Below, piece by piece: positions 3,854-13,110 of a DNA stretch of 13,160 bases. Under the pieces are notes generated by a model that was not told the origin of the DNA, did no database searches, and was given only the letters and a program-made list of their open reading frames with translations. Made by a program: the position numbers and the translations under genes. Positions within the stretch are counted from its first letter, which is position 1; every line of letters begins with the position of its first letter. This DNA comes from a virus, in UHGV virus genome UHGV-0093041; one strand, written 5' to 3'.

Positions 3854-3972
3854 AACGCCTCCAGTTGTTTCTTTGCTGCTCTGATTAATTGTTTAACTCG
3901 GCGTGATAATTCAGATTCGTGCGGGTAGAAAGCGGACATGACGCCGCTACCCGCGAGCTGAAAGTGCATCAT
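3838..3972 (-). CDS. cIII: cIII-like protein (FtsH inhibitor family), 44 aa (MMHFQLAGSGVMSAFYPHESELSRRVKQLIRAAKKQLEALCAMK)
   Basis: Not in the ORF track. AGGAG Shine-Dalgarno 6 nt before ATG. The segment PHESELSRRVKQLIRAAKKQL parallels lambda cIII PSESLLERITRKLRDGWKRL (amphipathic helix), and the position is between ea10 and kil. Confidence 0.6.
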   Translation of the reverse strand: MMHFQLAGSGVMSAFYPHESELSRRVKQLIRAAKKQLEALCAMK

Positions 3973-4047
3973 GGGTAACTCCTTATATTTGATTGCATAA
4001 CGAAAACGCCTCGAGTGAAGCGTTATTGGTATGCGGTAAAGCCGCGC

Positions 4048-4416
4048 TCAGGCGGCTTTGATAGTCATATCATCTGAATCAAATATTCCTGATGTATCGA
4101 TATCGGTAATTCTTATTCCTTCACTACCATCCATTGGAGGCCATCCTTCCTGACCATTTCCATCATCCCAGTCGAACTCACAAACAACACCATATGCATT
4201 TAAGTCTTTCGAAATTGCTATAAGCAGAGCATGTTGCGCCAGCATGATTAATACAGCATTTAATACAGCGCCGTGTTTATTGAGTCGGTATTCAGAGTCT
4301 GACCAGAAATTATTAATCTGGTGAAGTTTTTCCTCTGTCATTACGTCATGGTCGATTTCAATTTCTATTGATGCTTTCCAGTCGTAATCAATGATGTATT
4401 TTTTGATGTTTGACAT
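4048..4416 (-). CDS. ea10: Ea10-like protein, 122 aa
   Basis: Tabulated ORF; the sequence MSNIKKYIIDYDWKASIEIEIDHDVMTEEKLHQINNFWSDSEY... matches lambda Ea10 from memory, in the lambda-like position between cIII and the N-proximal accessory region. Confidence 0.8.
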   Translation of the reverse strand: MSNIKKYIIDYDWKASIEIEIDHDVMTEEKLHQINNFWSDSEYRLNKHGAVLNAVLIMLAQHALLIAISKDLNAYGVVCEFDWDDGNGQEGWPPMDGSEGIRITDIDTSGIFDSDDMTIKAA

Positions 4417-4433
4417 CTATTCATATCCTCATA

Positions 4434-4462
4434 GATAAAAAATCGCCCTCACATTGGAGGGC
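4434..4462 (-). terminator. Rho-independent terminator (minus strand) immediately upstream of ea10; may correspond to a lambda tL2-type terminator
   Basis: Stem GCCCTC (4445-4450) / GAGGGC (4457-4462) with a 6-nt loop; the minus-strand RNA continues GAUUUUUUAUCUAU. Confidence 0.45.
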
Positions 4463-4580
4463 AAAGAAGATTTCCAATAATCAGAACAAGTCGGCTCCTG
4501 TTTAGTTACGAGCGACATTGCTCCGTGTATTCACTCGTTGGAATGAATACACAGTGCAGTGTTTATTCTCTTGTTTATGC

Positions 4581-4605
4581 CAAAAATAAAGGCCGAATAT
4601 TCGGC
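4581..4605 (-). terminator. Rho-independent terminator (minus strand) downstream of the PAPS-reductase-like cassette
   Basis: Perfect palindrome GCCGAATATTCGGC (4592-4605); the minus-strand RNA continues UUUAUUUUU (plus-strand A-run 4582-4590). Confidence 0.45.
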
Positions 4606-4742
4606 TTCATTCCTCAAACTTAATCTCTGCTATTTCCCGGTCACCATCGCAAAACAGGTAAGATTCAGGGAACTGGTTTATAAATGAAATTATTCTTTCA
4701 ATTTTAATTAGCGAATATTTCTGCTCTAATGGGTTATGCGGC

Positions 4743-5600
4743 TTAAACGAAGCACAGTCCAGAATCGCAGAATTGTATAAGATCCATTTGTGCATTTTTA
4801 CCACCACTAGGTGTTAGTGGTGCCTCAGATAGTGGAACACCATATTTAGTAAGCCACAAATGAGGCCACTTCATTTGTATCTCTTTTTCATGCTGACATG
4901 CTCTTTCAAAATCAGATGGGACGTTATTTTTCATATAAAGCCACAGATCATCATCTCTGTTAGGGCACATCCAGCAAAGCGAGGCAGGTGGTGTAGGAAG
5001 ACCATAATCCTCGACACATTGAATTGCCATCTGTTTAGTCATTAGCATTTCAATAAGTGGATAGCGCCTCTGCCACTTGCCAGTTGGGTATTTCGCTCTT
5101 CGTTTAGCCTCTTCAATGCTTATCCCCATCCAACTATCCACTCCTCTTGCTGTAAGATACTTCTCTCCATATCTTTCATTTAAAAATCTCTGAATAACTT
5201 CAGTTTTCCACTTTATAGAACAAAATGCTGGTTGCTTTCCAGCGCACATTCCTTTTGAATCCCTTCCCTCGTATTCTGTGAAATATCCAGGTAGAGGAAC
5301 GTCTGGATCAGGCCCATCAATGTCGTAGGTAGCAAATCTACTTTTAGGAACAATCAGGTAATCAACACCCATATCTTCACAAATAGGAGCTATATATTTT
5401 TTCTGATATTCAAATACATTACTTGCCTCACGTTCTGTATCTGACATAACGATAATGTCAGGCTTTGGAAGAACGCCAGCATGTACTAAGCAGATTATTG
5501 CGTTACTTTGAGTACCACCACCGGAAGAAATAACATTTAGTCTTTCTGGATTATGCTTGAATTCTCTTCTTGGTATGAATTTACTTGTAAATCCTGGCAT
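4743..5600 (-). CDS. PAPS-reductase-family (PP-loop ATP pyrophosphatase) protein, 285 aa
   Basis: N-terminal region VISSGGGTQSNAIICLVHAGVLPKPDIIVMSDTEREASNVFEYQKKYI aligns by eye with the CysH PP-loop region [42 protein letters not shown]. C-terminal cysteines (CWMCPNRDD, CQHE, FCDSGLC) could bind a metal or Fe-S cluster. AGGAGA Shine-Dalgarno before ATG 5600. Confidence 0.75.
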   Translation of the reverse strand: MPGFTSKFIPRREFKHNPERLNVISSGGGTQSNAIICLVHAGVLPKPDIIVMSDTEREASNVFEYQKKYIAPICEDMGVDYLIVPKSRFATYDIDGPDPDVPLPGYFTEYEGRDSKGMCAGKQPAFCSIKWKTEVIQRFLNERYGEKYLTARGVDSWMGISIEEAKRRAKYPTGKWQRRYPLIEMLMTKQMAIQCVEDYGLPTPPASLCWMCPNRDDDLWLYMKNNVPSDFERACQHEKEIQMKWPHLWLTKYGVPLSEAPLTPSGGKNAQMDLIQFCDSGLCFV

Positions 5601-5601
5601 G

Positions 5602-5733
5602 TTATCTCCTTGTCTTTACAATTTGATAATCCTGACCTGTTTGTTTAGCGTATTGCTCAGCCTGTTCTTTTGTTTTGAAAGAGTTTCCGCAAACCCATCT
5701 ACCGCAACTTCTGTATTGAATTTGGTAGCTCAT
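5602..5733 (-). CDS. Small hypothetical protein, 43 aa (MSYQIQYRSCGRWVCGNSFKTKEQAEQYAKQTGQDYQIVKTRR)
   Basis: Not in the ORF track. GAGGGG Shine-Dalgarno before ATG 5733, 3 nt after the N stop; its stop is 1 nt before the PAPS-reductase-like start. This makes a tightly packed N - orf43 - PAPS-reductase-like operon. Confidence 0.45.
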   Translation of the reverse strand: MSYQIQYRSCGRWVCGNSFKTKEQAEQYAKQTGQDYQIVKTRR

Positions 5734-5736
5734 ATC

Positions 5737-6069
5737 TCACCCCTCATACAGTGGTTTGCTGCCTAATTTCATTTTCTGGCGACCAACACAAGTCACACCC
5801 ATTTCACTGCGTGGCTTGCTGTACCATGTGCGCTGATTCTTGCGCTCAATACGTTGCAGGTTGCTTTCAATCTGTTCGTGGTATTCAGCCAGCACCGTAA
5901 GGTCTATCGGATTCAGTGCGCTTTCTACTCGTGATTTCGGTTTGCGATTCAGCGAGAGAATAGGGCGGTTAACTGGTTTTGCGCTTACCCCAACCAACAG
6001 GGGATTTGCTGCTTTCCATTGAGCCTGTTTCTCTGCGCGACGTTCGCGGCGGCGTGTTTGTGCATCCAT
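5737..6069 (-). CDS. N: Antitermination protein N (lambda N-like), 110 aa from ATG at 6069
   Basis: MDAQTRRRERRAEKQAQWKAANPLLVGVSAKPVNRPILSLNRKPKSRVESALNPIDLTVLAEYH... matches lambda N, including the Arg-rich boxB-binding motif. The tabulated ORF has a spurious 26-aa N-terminal extension. Confidence 0.9.
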   Translation of the reverse strand: MDAQTRRRERRAEKQAQWKAANPLLVGVSAKPVNRPILSLNRKPKSRVESALNPIDLTVLAEYHEQIESNLQRIERKNQRTWYSKPRSEMGVTCVGRQKMKLGSKPLYEG

Positions 6070-6227
6070 CTGGATTCTCCTGTCAGTTAGCTTTGGTGGT
6101 GTGTGGGAGTCGTAGTCCTGAACGAAAACACCCCGCGATTGGCGCATTGGCAGCTAATCCGGATTCGCACTTCCGGCCAATGCTTCGTTTCGTATCACAC
6201 ACCCCAAAGCCTTCTGCTTTGAATGCT

Positions 6228-6258
6228 GCCCTTCTTCAGGGCTTAATTTTTAAGAGCG
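6228..6258 (-). promoter_or_regulatory. nutL: nutL site: boxA (6250-6258) and boxB hairpin (6228-6242)
   Basis: Minus strand reads CGCTCTTAAAAATTAAGCCCTGAAGAAGGGCAGC, which is the lambda nutL boxA plus the GCCCTGAAGAAGGGC boxB stem-loop. Confidence 0.8.
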
Positions 6259-6302
6259 TCACCTTCATGGTGGTCAGTGCGTCCTGCTGATGGCTTAAAA
6301 TT

Positions 6303-6370
6303 ACAAGAAAGATTGTATGCTGTAAACAAGAAATATTGTAAAAATGGGCGTGAAAAACAAACTCCATTGT
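6303..6370 (-). promoter_or_regulatory. OL operator cluster and PL promoter region: three 14-bp 434-type operators at 6303-6316, 6326-6339 and 6357-6370
   Basis: ACAAGAAAGATTGT, ACAAGAAATATTGT and ACAAACTCCATTGT all fit the 434 operator pattern ACAA-N6-TTGT. TACAAT-like -10 elements are interleaved on the minus strand. The exact PL -35/-10 assignment is uncertain. Confidence 0.7.
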
Positions 6371-6420
6371 TTTTAAACGGAAAATAGTTTGTTTTTTGGT
6401 TGTCGAAATCGAGGTGAGGA

Positions 6421-7773
<1,353 letters not shown>

Positions 7774-8205: not shown

Positions 8206-8367
8206 ATGACAAAACGTCGTAAGAAATACCAGGAAAAAGAAGAGATTCGACACCCTGATTCACCTGAGGGATTAGTGGTAGCCGCAGCAAATAACAGGGC
8301 GTTCGCAGAGCGCCTTGTTGGTGTTTACAGACTAGCCAAAGCAGGAGTGAAACATGGGCGTCGTTAA
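8206..8367 (+). CDS. Small basic hypothetical protein, 53 aa (MTKRRKKYQEKEEIRHPDSPEGLVVAAANNRAFAERLVGVYRLAKAGVKHGRR)
   Basis: Not in the ORF track. AGGAG Shine-Dalgarno 5 nt before ATG 8206. Lies between cII and the replication initiator gene. Confidence 0.35.
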   Translation: MTKRRKKYQEKEEIRHPDSPEGLVVAAANNRAFAERLVGVYRLAKAGVKHGRR

Positions 8368-8416
8368 GTTAGCTGATTACAGGCATAACCCTGTACAACA
8401 TCAGGAGGCATCCAGT

Positions 8417-9244
8417 ATGGGGTATGTCTCTATACACCGCCAGTTTATGGACAGCAGGCTCTATAAGGACTCTCAGGCAGTACATCTTTGGCTTCACTTA
8501 ATCCTCAAGGCTAATCACGAATCTACTGTCGTCAATACGGATATCGGTCCGATAACTGTTGATCGCGGTCAGATGATAACTGGACGCCCGTCGCTGGTCA
8601 GAGAAACATTCATCCCCGACAACAAAGTTCGGAGCTTATTACGGACTTTTGAGTCGAAAGGGATGCTTAATATTTGCTCGATGGGGAAGAAATTTAGCCT
8701 GTTTACAATCGTTAAATATGATGATTTTCAGGCAAAAAATTGTCCAACGGTTGTCCAACGGTTGTCCAACGCAAACACCAGTAATGGCGCGGCTCTCAGC
8801 GGAGATTGTCCAACGGTTGTCCAACGGTTGTCCATAAACAATAATATAAATAATATCTCTAATACTGACGTATTAGAGAGTGCCACAGCAGACAAAAAGT
8901 CTGACAAGAAAAAACCTTCCGTTAGCTGTCAGGATGTTGTCGATGCTTACCACGAAATCCTTCCTGAAGCGCCAAGAATCCGCGCACTGAATGACAAGCG
9001 TAAAAACCAGATCCGAACGTTCTGGCGCAAAGCCGGAGTGATAACCCGCCAGCTTGACGGGCATGGGTTCACGATGCAGGACTGGAGAAATTATTTGAGC
9101 TACGTAGGCGAAAATTGCCGATGGATGTTCGAAGAGCGCCCAAACCATCAACGCGGAACCGTCTGGCACAAAAAGGGATTTGATTTCCTGCTTAACGATA
9201 ATACCTACCTGAAAGTTCGTGAGGGTGAACACGATGACCGATAA
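8417..9244 (+). CDS. Replication initiator (O-like origin-binding protein), 275 aa from ATG at 8417 (tabulated ORF starts at 8354)
   Basis: Contains the origin iterons within its coding sequence (encoded as repeated CPTVVQRLS peptide), as lambda O does. AGGAGG Shine-Dalgarno 8 nt before ATG 8417. Lies directly upstream of, and overlapping, the DnaB-like helicase gene. Confidence 0.7.
   Translation: MGYVSIHRQFMDSRLYKDSQAVHLWLHLILKANHESTVVNTDIGPITVDRGQMITGRPSLVRETFIPDNKVRSLLRTFESKGMLNICSMGKKFSLFTIVKYDDFQAKNCPTVVQRLSNANTSNGAALSGDCPTVVQRLSINNNINNISNTDVLESATADKKSDKKKPSVSCQDVVDAYHEILPEAPRIRALNDKRKNQIRTFWRKAGVITRQLDGHGFTMQDWRNYLSYVGENCRWMFEERPNHQRGTVWHKKGFDFLLNDNTYLKVREGEHDDR
8740..8838. repeat. 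Replication-origin iterons: two clusters of three tandem 11-bp direct repeats (TTGTCCAACGG) at 8740-8772 and 8806-8838, followed by an AT-rich tract (about 8839-8880)
   Basis: Directly visible: ttgtccaacggttgtccaacggttgtccaacgc ... ttgtccaacggttgtccaacggttgtccat, then aaacaataatataaataatatctctaatact. Confidence 0.75.
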
Positions 9245-10670
9245 TTTTTATGCGCCGCCCCATAGCATCGAGGCAGAGCAGGCGGTGATTGGTGGATTGC
9301 TTCTGGATGATGACAGCAGTGAGCGCGTCCAGAAAGTTCTGGCGATGCTGAAGCCTGATTCATTTTACAGCCGGCCACACAAAATCCTTTTCGAAGAAAT
9401 AACCAGAATGCACCGGGAGCAAAAGCCAGTAGATGGCCTGACGCTTTTCGATGAACTGGAGCGTAAATCGTTAACTGTGTCTGTTGGCGGTTTTGCTTAT
9501 ATCGCTGAGATCGCAAAGAACACGCCAAGCGCCGCAAACATCGTTGCCTATGCAATGCAGGTTCGTGAAACCGCAATGGAACGCTACGCCATCAACCGCA
9601 TGACTGAAGCGACGGAATTGCTCTATTCCCGCAATGGAATGACTGCAACGCAGAAGTACGAAGCTATTCAGGCGATTTTCACGCAACTGACAGACCATGC
9701 AAAAACCGGATCGCGTCGCGGCCTTCGCTCATTTGGTGAGGTCATGGAAGGCTGGGTTAGCGACCTTGAGAAGCGATTTGACCCATCAGGCGAACAACGG
9801 GGAATGAGCACAGGGATCCCATCGCTGGACAGGATGCTGTCACCGAAAGGTCTGGTGAAAGGCTCTCTGTTTGTCATTGGCGCTCGCCCTAAGATGGGGA
9901 AAACGACGCTATACAGCCAGATGGCAATCAACTGCGCAGTGCATGAGAAAAAGCCCGCTCTGATGTTCAGCCTTGAAATGCCAGGTGACCAGATACTGGA
10001 AAAACTGGTAGGACAGAAGTCAGGTGTTAACCCGAATATTTTTTACCTTCCGGCGACAAATGACGCTGATGACGGCTATCAGGGTGATTACGATGGTGAC
10101 TTCAACAGGGCGATCGAAACAGCAAATCGCTTGAGTGAAATCGACCTGCTTTACATCGACGACACGCCGGGATTATCTCTGGCTCAAATCGTCAGTGAAA
10201 GCCGTCGAATCAAGCGAGAAAAAGGATGTGTTGGCATGATTCTGGTCGATTACCTGACACTAATGACCGCTGAGAAGGCCGATCGCAACGACCTTGCTTA
10301 CGGCATGATCACCAAAGGACTGAAGAACCTTGCCAAAGAGCTTGATTGCGTTGTTGTGCTTCTGACACAGCTTAACCGCGCATTGGAAAGCCGAACCAAT
10401 AAACGCCCATTACCAAGTGACTCGCGCGATACAGGGCAGATTGAACAGGATTGCGATTATTGGGTGGGGATCCATCGTGAAGGTGCTTTTGATGACAGTG
10501 TTCCACCTGGTGAAACCGAACTAATCCTTCGTCTCAATCGTCATGGCAATACCGGCACGGTGTATTGCATTCAGGCAAATGGCGCTATTTATGACACAGA
10601 CCAACAGTCCGCTGAAATGCGCCGCCGTGAACGCGAGGAACCGCAATCCAAGAAGAAAGGAGGATTCTGA
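9234..10670 (+). CDS. Replicative DNA helicase, DnaB family, 478 aa from ATG at 9234 (tabulated ORF uses GTG at 9219)
   Basis: N-terminus PPHSIEAEQAVIGGLLLDD matches E. coli DnaB (PPHSIEAEQSVLGGLMLDN). Walker A GARPKMGKTT; helicase motifs ILVDYLTLM and LTQLNRALESR; SVGGFAYIAEIAKNTPSAANIVAYA parallels DnaB SVGGFAYLAELSKNTPSAANISAYA. Confidence 0.9.
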   Translation: MTDNFYAPPHSIEAEQAVIGGLLLDDDSSERVQKVLAMLKPDSFYSRPHKILFEEITRMHREQKPVDGLTLFDELERKSLTVSVGGFAYIAEIAKNTPSAANIVAYAMQVRETAMERYAINRMTEATELLYSRNGMTATQKYEAIQAIFTQLTDHAKTGSRRGLRSFGEVMEGWVSDLEKRFDPSGEQRGMSTGIPSLDRMLSPKGLVKGSLFVIGARPKMGKTTLYSQMAINCAVHEKKPALMFSLEMPGDQILEKLVGQKSGVNPNIFYLPATNDADDGYQGDYDGDFNRAIETANRLSEIDLLYIDDTPGLSLAQIVSESRRIKREKGCVGMILVDYLTLMTAEKADRNDLAYGMITKGLKNLAKELDCVVVLLTQLNRALESRTNKRPLPSDSRDTGQIEQDCDYWVGIHREGAFDDSVPPGETELILRLNRHGNTGTVYCIQANGAIYDTDQQSAEMRRREREEPQSKKKGGF

Positions 10671-11480: not shown

Positions 11481-11891
11481 GTGAAGCAAACAATATTCCT
11501 CCGAACTAAGCAACAACAGCAAGCTGCAATAAATGCCATCCTCGCAACACCACTCGATAAAGACAAGCCAGTCACCATCCGCATTACTGACTACAAGCGC
11601 AACCTTGACCAGAACGCAAAATTTCACGCGATGGTCGCAGATATCGCTAGGCAAGTTCAGTGGCGCGACAAATGGTTAAAACCGGAACAATGGAAGGTTT
11701 TGTTGATCAGCGGTCATGCAGTGGCTACAAAGCAGGAAGCTGATGTTTTGCCCGGGCTTGAAGGCGAATACGTCAACATTCGCGAAAGTAGCGCGCAGAT
11801 GAGCGTGAAGCGTATGGCAAGTCTGATTGAGTACACGACAGCATGGGCTATTGGTCAGGGTGTCAGATTTACCGACAGGAGGTACGAATGA
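11481..11891 (+). CDS. ninB: NinB (Orf-family recombination protein), 136 aa, GTG start
   Basis: AAGGAG Shine-Dalgarno before GTG 11481. [33 protein letters not shown] parallels lambda NinB RSLDQNRKLWACLGDVSRQVEWHGRWLDAESWK. Confidence 0.85.
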
Positions 11892-12070
11892 GACGACAGC
11901 GACGAAGTATCACCGACATCATCTGCGAAAACTGCAAATACCTTCCAACGAAGCGCTCCAGAAATAAACGCAAGCCAATCCCAAAAGAATCTGACGTAAA
12001 AACCTTCAACTACACGGCTCACCTGTGGGATATCCGGTGGCTTAGAGAACGTGCGAGGAAAACAAGGTGA
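11888..12070 (+). CDS. ninE: NinE-like protein, 60 aa
   Basis: ATG overlaps the ninB stop (ATGA) with AGGAGG upstream. [40 protein letters not shown]... matches lambda NinE from memory. Confidence 0.75.
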
Positions 12071-12237
12071 TTGACCCAAATCGAAGTTACGAACAAGAAA
12101 GCGTCGAGCGGGCTTTAACGTGCGCTAACTGCGGTCAGAAGCTGCATGTGCTGGAAGTTCACGTGTGTGAGCACTGCTGCGCAGAGCTGATGAGCGATCC
12201 GAATAGCTCAATGTACGAGGAAGAAGACGATGAGTGA
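12067..12237 (+). CDS. ninF: NinF-like protein, 56 aa, GTG start overlapping the ninE stop
   Basis: Not in the ORF track. ...[43 protein letters not shown]... matches lambda NinF (Cys-rich, zinc-ribbon-like) from memory. Confidence 0.75.
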
Positions 12238-12499
12238 TTTCTCTGAGCTTATTTCCTTCAAAAAAGACAGAGAAGAAATGCGGACTGAATCTGTCTATTA
12301 CGTTCAACACCGGAATAAACGCTCTGTGCTTGATCAGGAGCTGGTTATTACCGGAGACCTGGCATTCAGAACATATAAGGCCAGCATGGAAATGAAGGAT
12401 TTCCCTAAATGTGGTTCTGAAAGAGAAGCCGCGTTAAAGCTGGCAGAGTGGATGCAGAGAATGGCTGCTGCAATTGAGAATTACTGGAGCGAACCATAA
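12230..12499 (+). CDS. Hypothetical protein, 89 aa, inserted between ninF and ninG
   Basis: Tabulated ORF; the ATG overlaps the ninF 3' end by 8 nt and the stop overlaps the ninG start (TAATG). Confidence 0.6.
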
Positions 12500-13110
12500 T
12501 GGCTAAACCAGCGCGAAGACGATGTAAAAACGATGAATGTCGGGAATGGTTTCACCCTGCATTCGCTAATCAGTGGTGGTGCTCTCCAGAGTGTGGAACA
12601 AAGATAGCACTCGAACGACGAAGCAAAGAACGCGAAAAAGCGGAAAAAGCAGCAGAGAAGAAACGACGACGAGAGGAGCAGAAACAGAAAGATAAACTGA
12701 AGATTCGAAAACTCGCCTTAAAGCCCCGCAGTTACTGGATTAAACAAGCCCAGCAAGCCGTAAACGCCTTCATCAGAGAAAGAGACCGCGACTTACCATG
12801 TATCTCGTGCGGAACGCTCACGTCTGCTCAGTGGGATGCCGGACATTACCGGACAACTGCTGCGGCACCTCAACTCCGATTTGATGAACGCAATATTCAC
12901 AAGCAATGCGTGGTGTGCAACCAGCATAAAAGCGGAAATCTCGTTCCGTATCGCGTCGAACTGATTAATCGCATAGGGCAGGAAGCAGTAGACGAAATCG
13001 AATCAAACCATAGCCGCCATCGCTGGACTATCGAAGAGTGCAAGGCGATCAAGGCAGAGTACCAACAGAAACTCAAAGACCTGCGAAATAGCAGAAGTGA
13101 GGCCGCATGA
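12499..13110 (+). CDS. ninG: NinG / Rap (recombination-associated structure-specific endonuclease), 203 aa
   Basis: Tabulated ORF; Cys-rich N-terminus ([27 protein letters not shown]), basic linker and conserved CISCG...[11 protein letters not shown] motifs are typical of the lambda NinG/Rap family. Confidence 0.85.

Follow-up and report, generated by a model that had tools for sequence, protein, structure and literature searches.

A distant homologue of lambda NinC in a mobile cassette directly behind gene N of a lambda-like prophage

What does a gene of the phosphoadenosine phosphosulfate (PAPS) reductase type do in the earliest operon of a lambdoid phage, and does it serve sulfur metabolism or the conflict between phage and host? 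PAPS-reductase-like genes are among the 'auxiliary metabolic genes' most frequently reported from viromes, and lambda's own ninC has gone without an explanation for four decades. The question is raised by a 13,160-nt stretch of the UHGV virus genome UHGV-0093041 (the window), which is the early region of a lambda-like prophage with its PL operon on the minus strand. Directly behind the gene for antiterminator N, the window carries a cassette made of a 43-aa open reading frame (ORF) and a gene for a 285-aa PAPS-reductase-like protein, and the locus offers a system in a lambda background for testing a role in conflict against one in sulfur metabolism. As judged from profile and motif comparisons, the 285-aa protein is a distant homologue of lambda NinC and a divergent member of the NinC-type PAPS-reductase-like enzymes. 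Enzymes of the NinC type were already known; what is new is a divergent member at the earliest possible position of the operon.

The protein escapes the usual domain libraries. It has no match in Pfam at E ≤ 1, including PF01507, which the first-pass annotation of this DNA had expected, and no match to any NCBIfam model. PHROG 424, 'phosphoadenosine phosphosulfate reductase', matches it over residues 11–284 (E = 4.7e-35). Most of its relatives escape Pfam as well: PF01507, for which membership was set by the Pfam gathering threshold of 22.5 bits, gives matches in only 5 of 49 family members (best E = 0.002), and a single one of ten distant representatives passes, nine of the ten sampled having no Pfam match. 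The close homologues that a database search returned, about 100 in number, come from Enterobacterales, Vibrio and Orbaceae; all are unnamed, and none has a Pfam domain. An exhaustive profile search collected 6,917 cluster representatives at E ≤ 1e-3 (1,677 at E ≤ 1e-30), and the 150 best-scoring of these 6,917 are almost all single-domain proteins of 240–290 aa. By these searches the family is a large phage-borne clade that is invisible to Pfam. The enzyme is under strong purifying selection, with 113 synonymous and 20 non-synonymous codon changes against the copy in the IMG/VR locus L018.

Lambda NinC (lambdap64, 290 aa) passes PF01507 at 36 bits and matches PHROG 424 with E = 1.2e-89, and a study of gene essentiality in lambda lists ninC as 'phosphoadenosine phosphosulfate reductase family protein' (PMC10695390). 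The first-pass annotation knew of no characterised role for such a gene in a lambdoid PL operon, but lambda itself encodes a protein of this kind in its nin region. Alignment of our family profile with NinC by hhalign gave a probability of 96.7% (E = 4e-10, 201 columns), and one family member, in L089, matches NinC directly (tblastn E = 1e-5). Motif by motif, SSGGGTQS of the window protein corresponds to SFSGGRTS of NinC, DTERE to DTGCE, FCSIKWK to FCTDRLK, WMGISIEEAKRR to WIGIRADEPKRL, CWMC to CIFC, and DSGLC to DTGSC. FC[ST], CxxC and, at the C-terminus, D[ST]GxC occur in both proteins, as do a DT motif and a P-loop in which the PP-loop aspartate is missing; the two are of similar length with a single domain, and both are encoded by non-essential early genes of lambdoid phages. 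They are nevertheless far apart, with about 21% identity and no similarity at the BLAST level, and NinC passes PF01507 whereas the 285-aa protein fails it. The gene studied here lies in the PL operon behind N but ninC in the nin region of the PR operon, and the comparison transfers no mechanism from one to the other.

Members of the family can also stand in the NinC position itself. They occupy the slot between NinB and NinG in three loci (L055, L056 and L072), and in L043 (770–2175) a family member overlaps a Dam methylase gene by ATGA and is translationally coupled to it. The ninC slot of the two Escherichia coli prophages that bear the cassette holds a Dam methylase; in lambdoid nin regions, Dam and NinC-type genes alternate or adjoin. 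With lambda NinC as query, tblastn found no match anywhere in the window, so that its ninC slot is empty. The nin region of the window (11481–13110, plus strand) encodes NinB, NinE, a NinF-like ORF, an 89-aa ORF and NinG, and both ninC and ninD are missing from it; as listed ORFs, NinB (11481–11891) overlaps NinE (11843–12070) by 49 nt.

The AlphaFold2 model built on the family alignment has a predicted local distance difference test (pLDDT) score of 91 and a predicted template modelling (pTM) score of 0.88, with low confidence only in the last ~25 residues. Foldseek places the model in the same superfamily when compared with the PDB (TM-score ~0.4, identity 12–14%) and matches it to a vibriophage 'PAPS reductase' in BFVD (E = 3e-11). 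Together with the PHROG 424 match and the NinC profile alignment, the predicted fold bears out the first-pass assignment to the PP-loop/PAPS-reductase fold. On the strength of this model we regard the PP-loop (adenine-nucleotide alpha-hydrolase) Rossmann fold as established for the 285-aa protein, at a long distance from every solved structure. Sequence searches of the PDB with the protein, the family profile and NinC as queries found no solved relative. The best match of the family profile, chain C of 21fy ('PptA', 270 aa), shares the pattern GxxxEExR...CxxC and was dropped as non-significant (E = 0.099).

Among the well-known enzymes of this fold are CysH and the adenosine phosphosulfate (APS) reductases, and virome papers widely treat phage PHROG 424 genes as cysH-type (PMC13369170), a metabolic-gene claim that the authors of that paper themselves call untested. 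The fold and several motifs, namely the P-loop glutamine, CxxC and a cysteine in a flexible tail, do resemble these reductases, and the N-terminal motif aligns with CysH as the first-pass annotation had it (SSGGGTQS...DTERE against SSSFGIQA...DTGY). A true PAPS or APS reductase, acting as an auxiliary metabolic gene that raises sulfite and cysteine or alters the pools of PAPS and 3'-phosphoadenosine 5'-phosphate (pAp), is all the same unlikely. Against E. coli CysH, the family profile aligns over no more than 44 columns (E = 2e-3), and a CysH or APS reductase would have shown itself by a PF01507 or NCBIfam match. Identity to the reductases of PDB entries 2goy, 6vpu and 7rge is 12–14%, and the window protein differs from them by an insertion of ~40 residues (about 86–125) and an extra helical C-terminal region. 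The C-terminal ECG[LI]H motif that bears the catalytic cysteine (ECGLH) and the Arg-loop sequence are absent; in the tail, which reads FCDSGLCFV, a glycine and both cysteines are invariant. A cysH gene is general among E. coli strains, MG1655 included, and there is no obvious payoff in making a sulfur-assimilation enzyme within the first minute after lambda infects.

The same data bear on another function, the modification of RNA, for example by a tRNA thiolase of the TtuA/NcsA/TtcA type that would retune translation or shield tRNAs from defence nucleases. We consider this quite improbable, as the base-adenylating SGGxDS loop of such enzymes is altered to SSGGGTQS with an invariant Gln31, the TM-scores of ~0.4 come with 12–14% identity, and no zinc-finger, tRNA-binding or other additional domain was detected by Pfam or in the predicted model. 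The relatives at the sequence level are NinC, SspD and CysH, not thiolases.

The NinC-type assignment leaves the question of chemistry, on which the conserved residues give some indications. Invariant in the 49-sequence alignment are G27, G29, Q31 (loop SSGGGTQS), D48, T55 and E58 (DTERE) in the N-terminal part, C127, K132, W157, G159, R168, P181 and L182 in the middle, and P204, P205, S207, C209, C212, P213, C278, G281 and C283 in the C-terminal part. Five cysteines are among them (C127, C209, C212, C278 and C283). The first reading of the sequence had taken the cysteines of CWMC, CQHE and CDSGLC for a metal or iron-sulfur (Fe-S) site; the conserved cysteines fit an Fe-S site, but that of CQHE is not conserved. 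Because C127, C209 and C212 have aligned counterparts both among the CC...CxxC Fe-S ligands of APS reductases and among the cysteines of NinC, a cluster is likely, and the site would be formed by Cys127, Cys209 and Cys212 together with Cys278 or Cys283. The C-terminal tail with its two invariant cysteines, which is the low-confidence part of the model, is probably flexible, and a tail cysteine would attack an already activated adenylyl or sulfo compound in the manner of CysH. Unlike DndC, SspD and TtuA, the enzyme probably does not adenylate its substrate with ATP, because the aspartate of the PP-loop, whose canonical motif is SGGxDS, is replaced; its position is taken by the invariant Gln31 in the family, by Thr in NinC and by Gln in CysH.

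Among the defence-system models of PADLOC, only SspD, the ATP pyrophosphatase of SspABCD phosphorothioation, matches the protein (E = 3e-7, 28 bits), and only over residues 120–252; the DndC and BrxP models give no match even at E ≤ 10. The proposed likeness to DndC-type enzymes is weak, given this partial SspD match, the lack of a DndC match and the replaced aspartate of SGGxDS. With 277 positions, the SspD profile is about as long as the 285-aa protein, but the latter has an altered PP-loop and is encoded by a solitary, phage-borne gene without SspA, SspB or SspC neighbours.

We compared gene neighbourhoods at 87 loci by crude ORF calls and protein clustering. No neighbour gene is conserved across the 80 viral loci, nor does one appear in the window. 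ParB-like and Dam genes recur in subsets only, and a conserved partner gene was rejected. The enzyme is a stand-alone, roving single-gene accessory of early operons: apart from the positions already described, its gene follows just after DnaB in L040 and L046 and elsewhere lies in the early-left operon near the integrase. In Serratia-type prophages (L008/L009, L031, L032, L035, L037 and L039) it lies 200–850 nt downstream of ParB-like (PF17762 HTH_ParB) and ParE-like genes, an arrangement which we take to resemble the IbrB/IbrA pairing of ParB with a PAPS reductase. The D3-like Pseudomonas phage BUCT566 (L006) carries a 40% identical homologue, and an annotated AcrF2 anti-CRISPR gene (10117–10410) lies ~4.4 kb away from it, beyond the integrase.

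How the gene came to lie behind N can be read from the flanks of the cassette. Homology to lambda, at 97% identity from ea10 onwards, ends at window position 4594 (lambda 34082), 5 nt short of the ral stop codon, and sets in again, at 95% identity, from 5768 (lambda 35062), a point within the 3' end of N. The block between these blastn boundaries replaces lambda 34083–35061, that is ral, orf28, sieB and the last codons of N, in agreement with the first-pass placement of the cassette in the ral/sieB interval. The last ~29 codons of N (5737–5823) are part of the mobile module, and the last ~10 differ from lambda N. The genes are packed exactly as originally described, with 3 nt (GAT) between the N stop codon (TGA, 5739–5737) and the 43-aa ORF and a single base (5601) between that ORF and the enzyme gene. 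Shine-Dalgarno-like sequences precede both start codons, GAGGGG before 5733 inside the end of N and AAGGAGA before 5600 inside the 43-aa ORF. The G+C content of the cassette is 37–43%, compared with 48–53% in N.

By blastn the cassette is present in only 2 of 5,426 complete E. coli genomes, and both copies lie in P22-like prophages, next to torI and directly behind a different, 101-aa N-like gene. The 93% identical copy in L018 stands behind a third N allele. A non-coding linker of ~160 nt (4435–4594) with two terminators is 97–100% conserved in lambda, the phage of the window and the P22-like prophages, while the genes on either side of it differ among them; in these alignments it behaves as the left recombination boundary. 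Recombination at the 3' end of N and at this terminator-bearing linker downstream of ral would have inserted the cassette. The slot between N and ea10 is variable; here it holds a mobile accessory of two genes, whose exchange is ordinary lambdoid module exchange at conserved boundaries. Lambda ral and sieB fill the same slot and act in the conflict with the host or with rival phages; like them, the cassette would be a non-essential early accessory in such conflict. They have no relation to it in sequence or fold; Ral, of 66 aa, alleviates restriction, and SieB serves in exclusion.

The terminator scan found no strong intrinsic terminator from nutL to 4605. Two weak matches (6145–6128 and 5243–5227) have five-pair stems, the second within coding sequence. 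Because nothing strong intervenes between PL/nutL and 4605, N, the 43-aa gene and the enzyme most likely share the first PL transcript, and co-transcription from PL, as first proposed, is the natural reading of the tight packing behind N. In lambda, tL1 separates N from ral, which would make the position of the cassette earlier than that of ral; its expression would accordingly be earlier than that of lambda's ral or NinC. The terminators at 4605–4582 and 4464–4443 would be those that N overcomes so that ea10, cIII, kil and the recombination genes are transcribed. The first of them had been described as the cassette's own. Its hairpin and T-run are real, and the 176-nt stretch that holds it (4570–4745) has a predicted fold z-score of -2.4, but the alignment with lambda and the two E. 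coli prophages assigns its 3' arm and its T-run to sequence that lambda has as well, which leaves the 5' arm as the one cassette-specific part.

A slot otherwise held by sieB and ral, bounded by terminators, is also what would be expected of a lysogenic-conversion or exclusion moron, expressed from the prophage like the sieB that it replaced, and the superfamily relatives SspD, DndC and BrxP act in host defence (PMC12839542). The expression signals make such a moron most improbable. The promoter scan gave three weak matches where 5.2 are expected by chance, none of them suitably placed upstream of either ORF. With spacings of 3 nt and 1 nt, both genes are bound to N, which is repressed in the lysogen, and other family members lie in nin and replication operons that are likewise silent in lysogens.

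Whether the enzyme acts together with the 43-aa protein is a separate matter. The 43-aa ORF is a genuine coding gene, because it differs from its counterpart in L018 by 16 synonymous and only 2 non-synonymous codons, with 17 of 19 substitutions at third positions. The two genes are retained as a pair in L018 (93% and 95% identity) and in the diverged L023 (80% and 56%), where they stand behind a terminator, not behind N. This persistence in two diverged lineages is what an obligate two-component system would show, but at the other ~70 viral loci, some of which have 84% identical enzymes, the enzyme gene stands without the 43-aa gene. Its homologues with 44–60% identity (tblastn) are found in Pantoea phage Nufs112, Klebsiella phage 6939, Pectobacterium phages CX5 and CB5, Erwinia phage VL73 and Edwardsiella phages, where they sit without the enzyme in the early regions of Autographiviridae (T7-like) phages; none of these turned up in the tblastn search for relatives of the enzyme (E ≤ 1e-3). 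An obligate two-component system is therefore very unlikely. We take the 43-aa gene for a small early gene in its own right, which at times accompanies the enzyme gene but does not encode an obligate subunit, and the dedicated partner that the first-pass annotation had seen in it, missing at more than 70 of the 80 related loci, falls away. Neither Cys10 nor Cys15 of the 43-aa protein is conserved, and a role as metal-binding partner was rejected on that ground. A below-threshold Pfam match to NDUS4 (E = 4e-4) looks like chance.

What remains is the role of the mobile enzyme itself. It would share that of NinC, as an early, non-essential accessory that guards the incoming or replicating phage genome, perhaps, though we say this with low confidence, by interfering with or mimicking a sulfur-based (phosphorothioate, Dnd/Ssp-type) or other nucleotide-based host defence. 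We infer counter-defence to be the most plausible role because of the partial SspD match, the displaced ral and sieB, the occurrence of PAPS reductases in Aca-regulated candidate anti-defence operons (PMC13551039) and the precedent of a vibriophage in which a fusion of a PAPS domain with Dam, together with a neighbour gene, gave escape from the Dnd system of the host (Piel et al. 2022; bioRxiv 10.1101/2021.05.05.442762; cited in PMC13551039). Like the cassette, the vibriophage fusion has a domain of the PAPS-reductase superfamily, lies in a variable early region and is exchanged among related phages.

Several observations weigh against this. The vibriophage protein is a 479-aa Dam fusion and so of another architecture, its anti-Dnd effect was assigned to a two-gene block and not separated from the neighbour gene (10.1101/2021.05.05.442762), and the vibriophage is absent from the 31 records that pass tblastn E ≤ 1e-3 with the window protein. 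The SspD match spans only half of the protein, at 28 bits, and no Dnd- or Ssp-type partner (desulfurase, ATPase, nickase, DndE/SspB) lies near the enzyme in the 80 viral loci or in the window. Dnd and Ssp systems are rare among E. coli hosts. The putative Fe-S site comes from sequence alignment, Rho-dependent termination inside the cassette is possible, so that its expression may yet depend on N, and the literature on NinC gives listings of it as non-essential and nothing further on its function.

Taken as a whole, a mobile cassette with a NinC-class enzyme, expressed early from PL in an accessory role that protects the phage genome, is the reading that we favour, at about even chances of being right. 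A bolder version, which we regard as doubtful, would make the NinC class phage-specific Fe-S enzymes of counter-defence with a cysteine tail, which might chemically disarm or mimic phosphorothioate marks or destroy an adenylylated or sulfated immune intermediate, and the cassette a version that was moved to the first transcript for speed. On the more general question, a Pfam-invisible clade circulates as single-gene cassettes among the early operons of temperate phages, is positionally interchangeable with NinC and in one lineage has taken the place of ral (anti-restriction) and sieB (exclusion) immediately after N, which argues, without proving it, that the NinC class serves the conflict between phage and host rather than sulfur metabolism. 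If the bolder version is true, a natural gain-of-position variant is at hand with which to test directly what lambda NinC does, and the many 'cysH auxiliary metabolic genes' of viromes would need to be reinterpreted.

The features of the locus are collected in the table. In and around its AT-rich spacer, an Rfam scan of 3900–6500 gave no match at E ≤ 1, and a 66-aa ORF that overlaps the spacer (4607–4807) has no Pfam or PHROG family match. An antisense ORF of 69 aa (5557–5766) was rejected, as a stop codon interrupts it in L018.

Table. Features of the cassette, its flanks and the nin region, in window coordinates
Feature	Position	Strand	Evidence
nutL boxB GCCCTGAAGAAGGGC	6242–6228	minus	sequence read; inverted repeat; inside the 95% lambda-homologous block 5768–6292 that covers the annotated Nutl of lambda
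Antiterminator N, lambda type	5737–6066	minus	PF11438 N36, E = 1.6e-26; PHROG 271
43-aa ORF	5602–5733	minus	ATG 5733, TAA 5604–5602; PHROG 15891, E = 4.7e-5
285-aa putative NinC-class protein of PAPS-reductase fold	4743–5600	minus	ATG 5600, TAA 4745–4743
AT-rich 3' untranslated spacer of the cassette	4606–4742	minus	no RNA family, no supported ORF
Intrinsic terminator closing the cassette	4582–4605	minus	hairpin GCCGAATATTCGGC 4605–4592, then T-run CTTTATTTTT 4591–4582
Second, stronger intrinsic terminator, before ea10	4443–4464	minus	kept in lambda and P22-like prophages
ea10 (DUF2528), downstream flank of the cassette	4048–4416	minus	PF10800, E = 4.1e-46; 97% identity to lambda
Mobile unit	4435–5823	minus	99.0–99.6% identical in two P22-like E. 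coli prophages (blastn)
nin region, NinB directly into NinE	11481–12070	plus	PF05772 NinB, PF05322 NinE; ninC slot empty

Upstream of N, homology to lambda stops at 6292, the start of PL. The repressor (6822–7454) has a helix-turn-helix (HTH) domain and an S24 peptidase domain; together with a Cro-like ORF, within 6822–7773, it reads as the immunity of phage 434. Directly after the repressor gene, in the slot of lambda rexAB, an ORF on the minus strand (6421–6897, 134–158 aa) encodes a protein with a hydrophobic, signal-like N-terminus and no Pfam match, which may be a moron expressed in the lysogen. In the position of the replication initiator, a 296-aa ORF on the plus strand (8354–9244) likewise has no Pfam match and contains the peptide DCPTVVQRLS twice within ~25 residues, a repeat that suggests origin iterons within the gene, as in lambda O.

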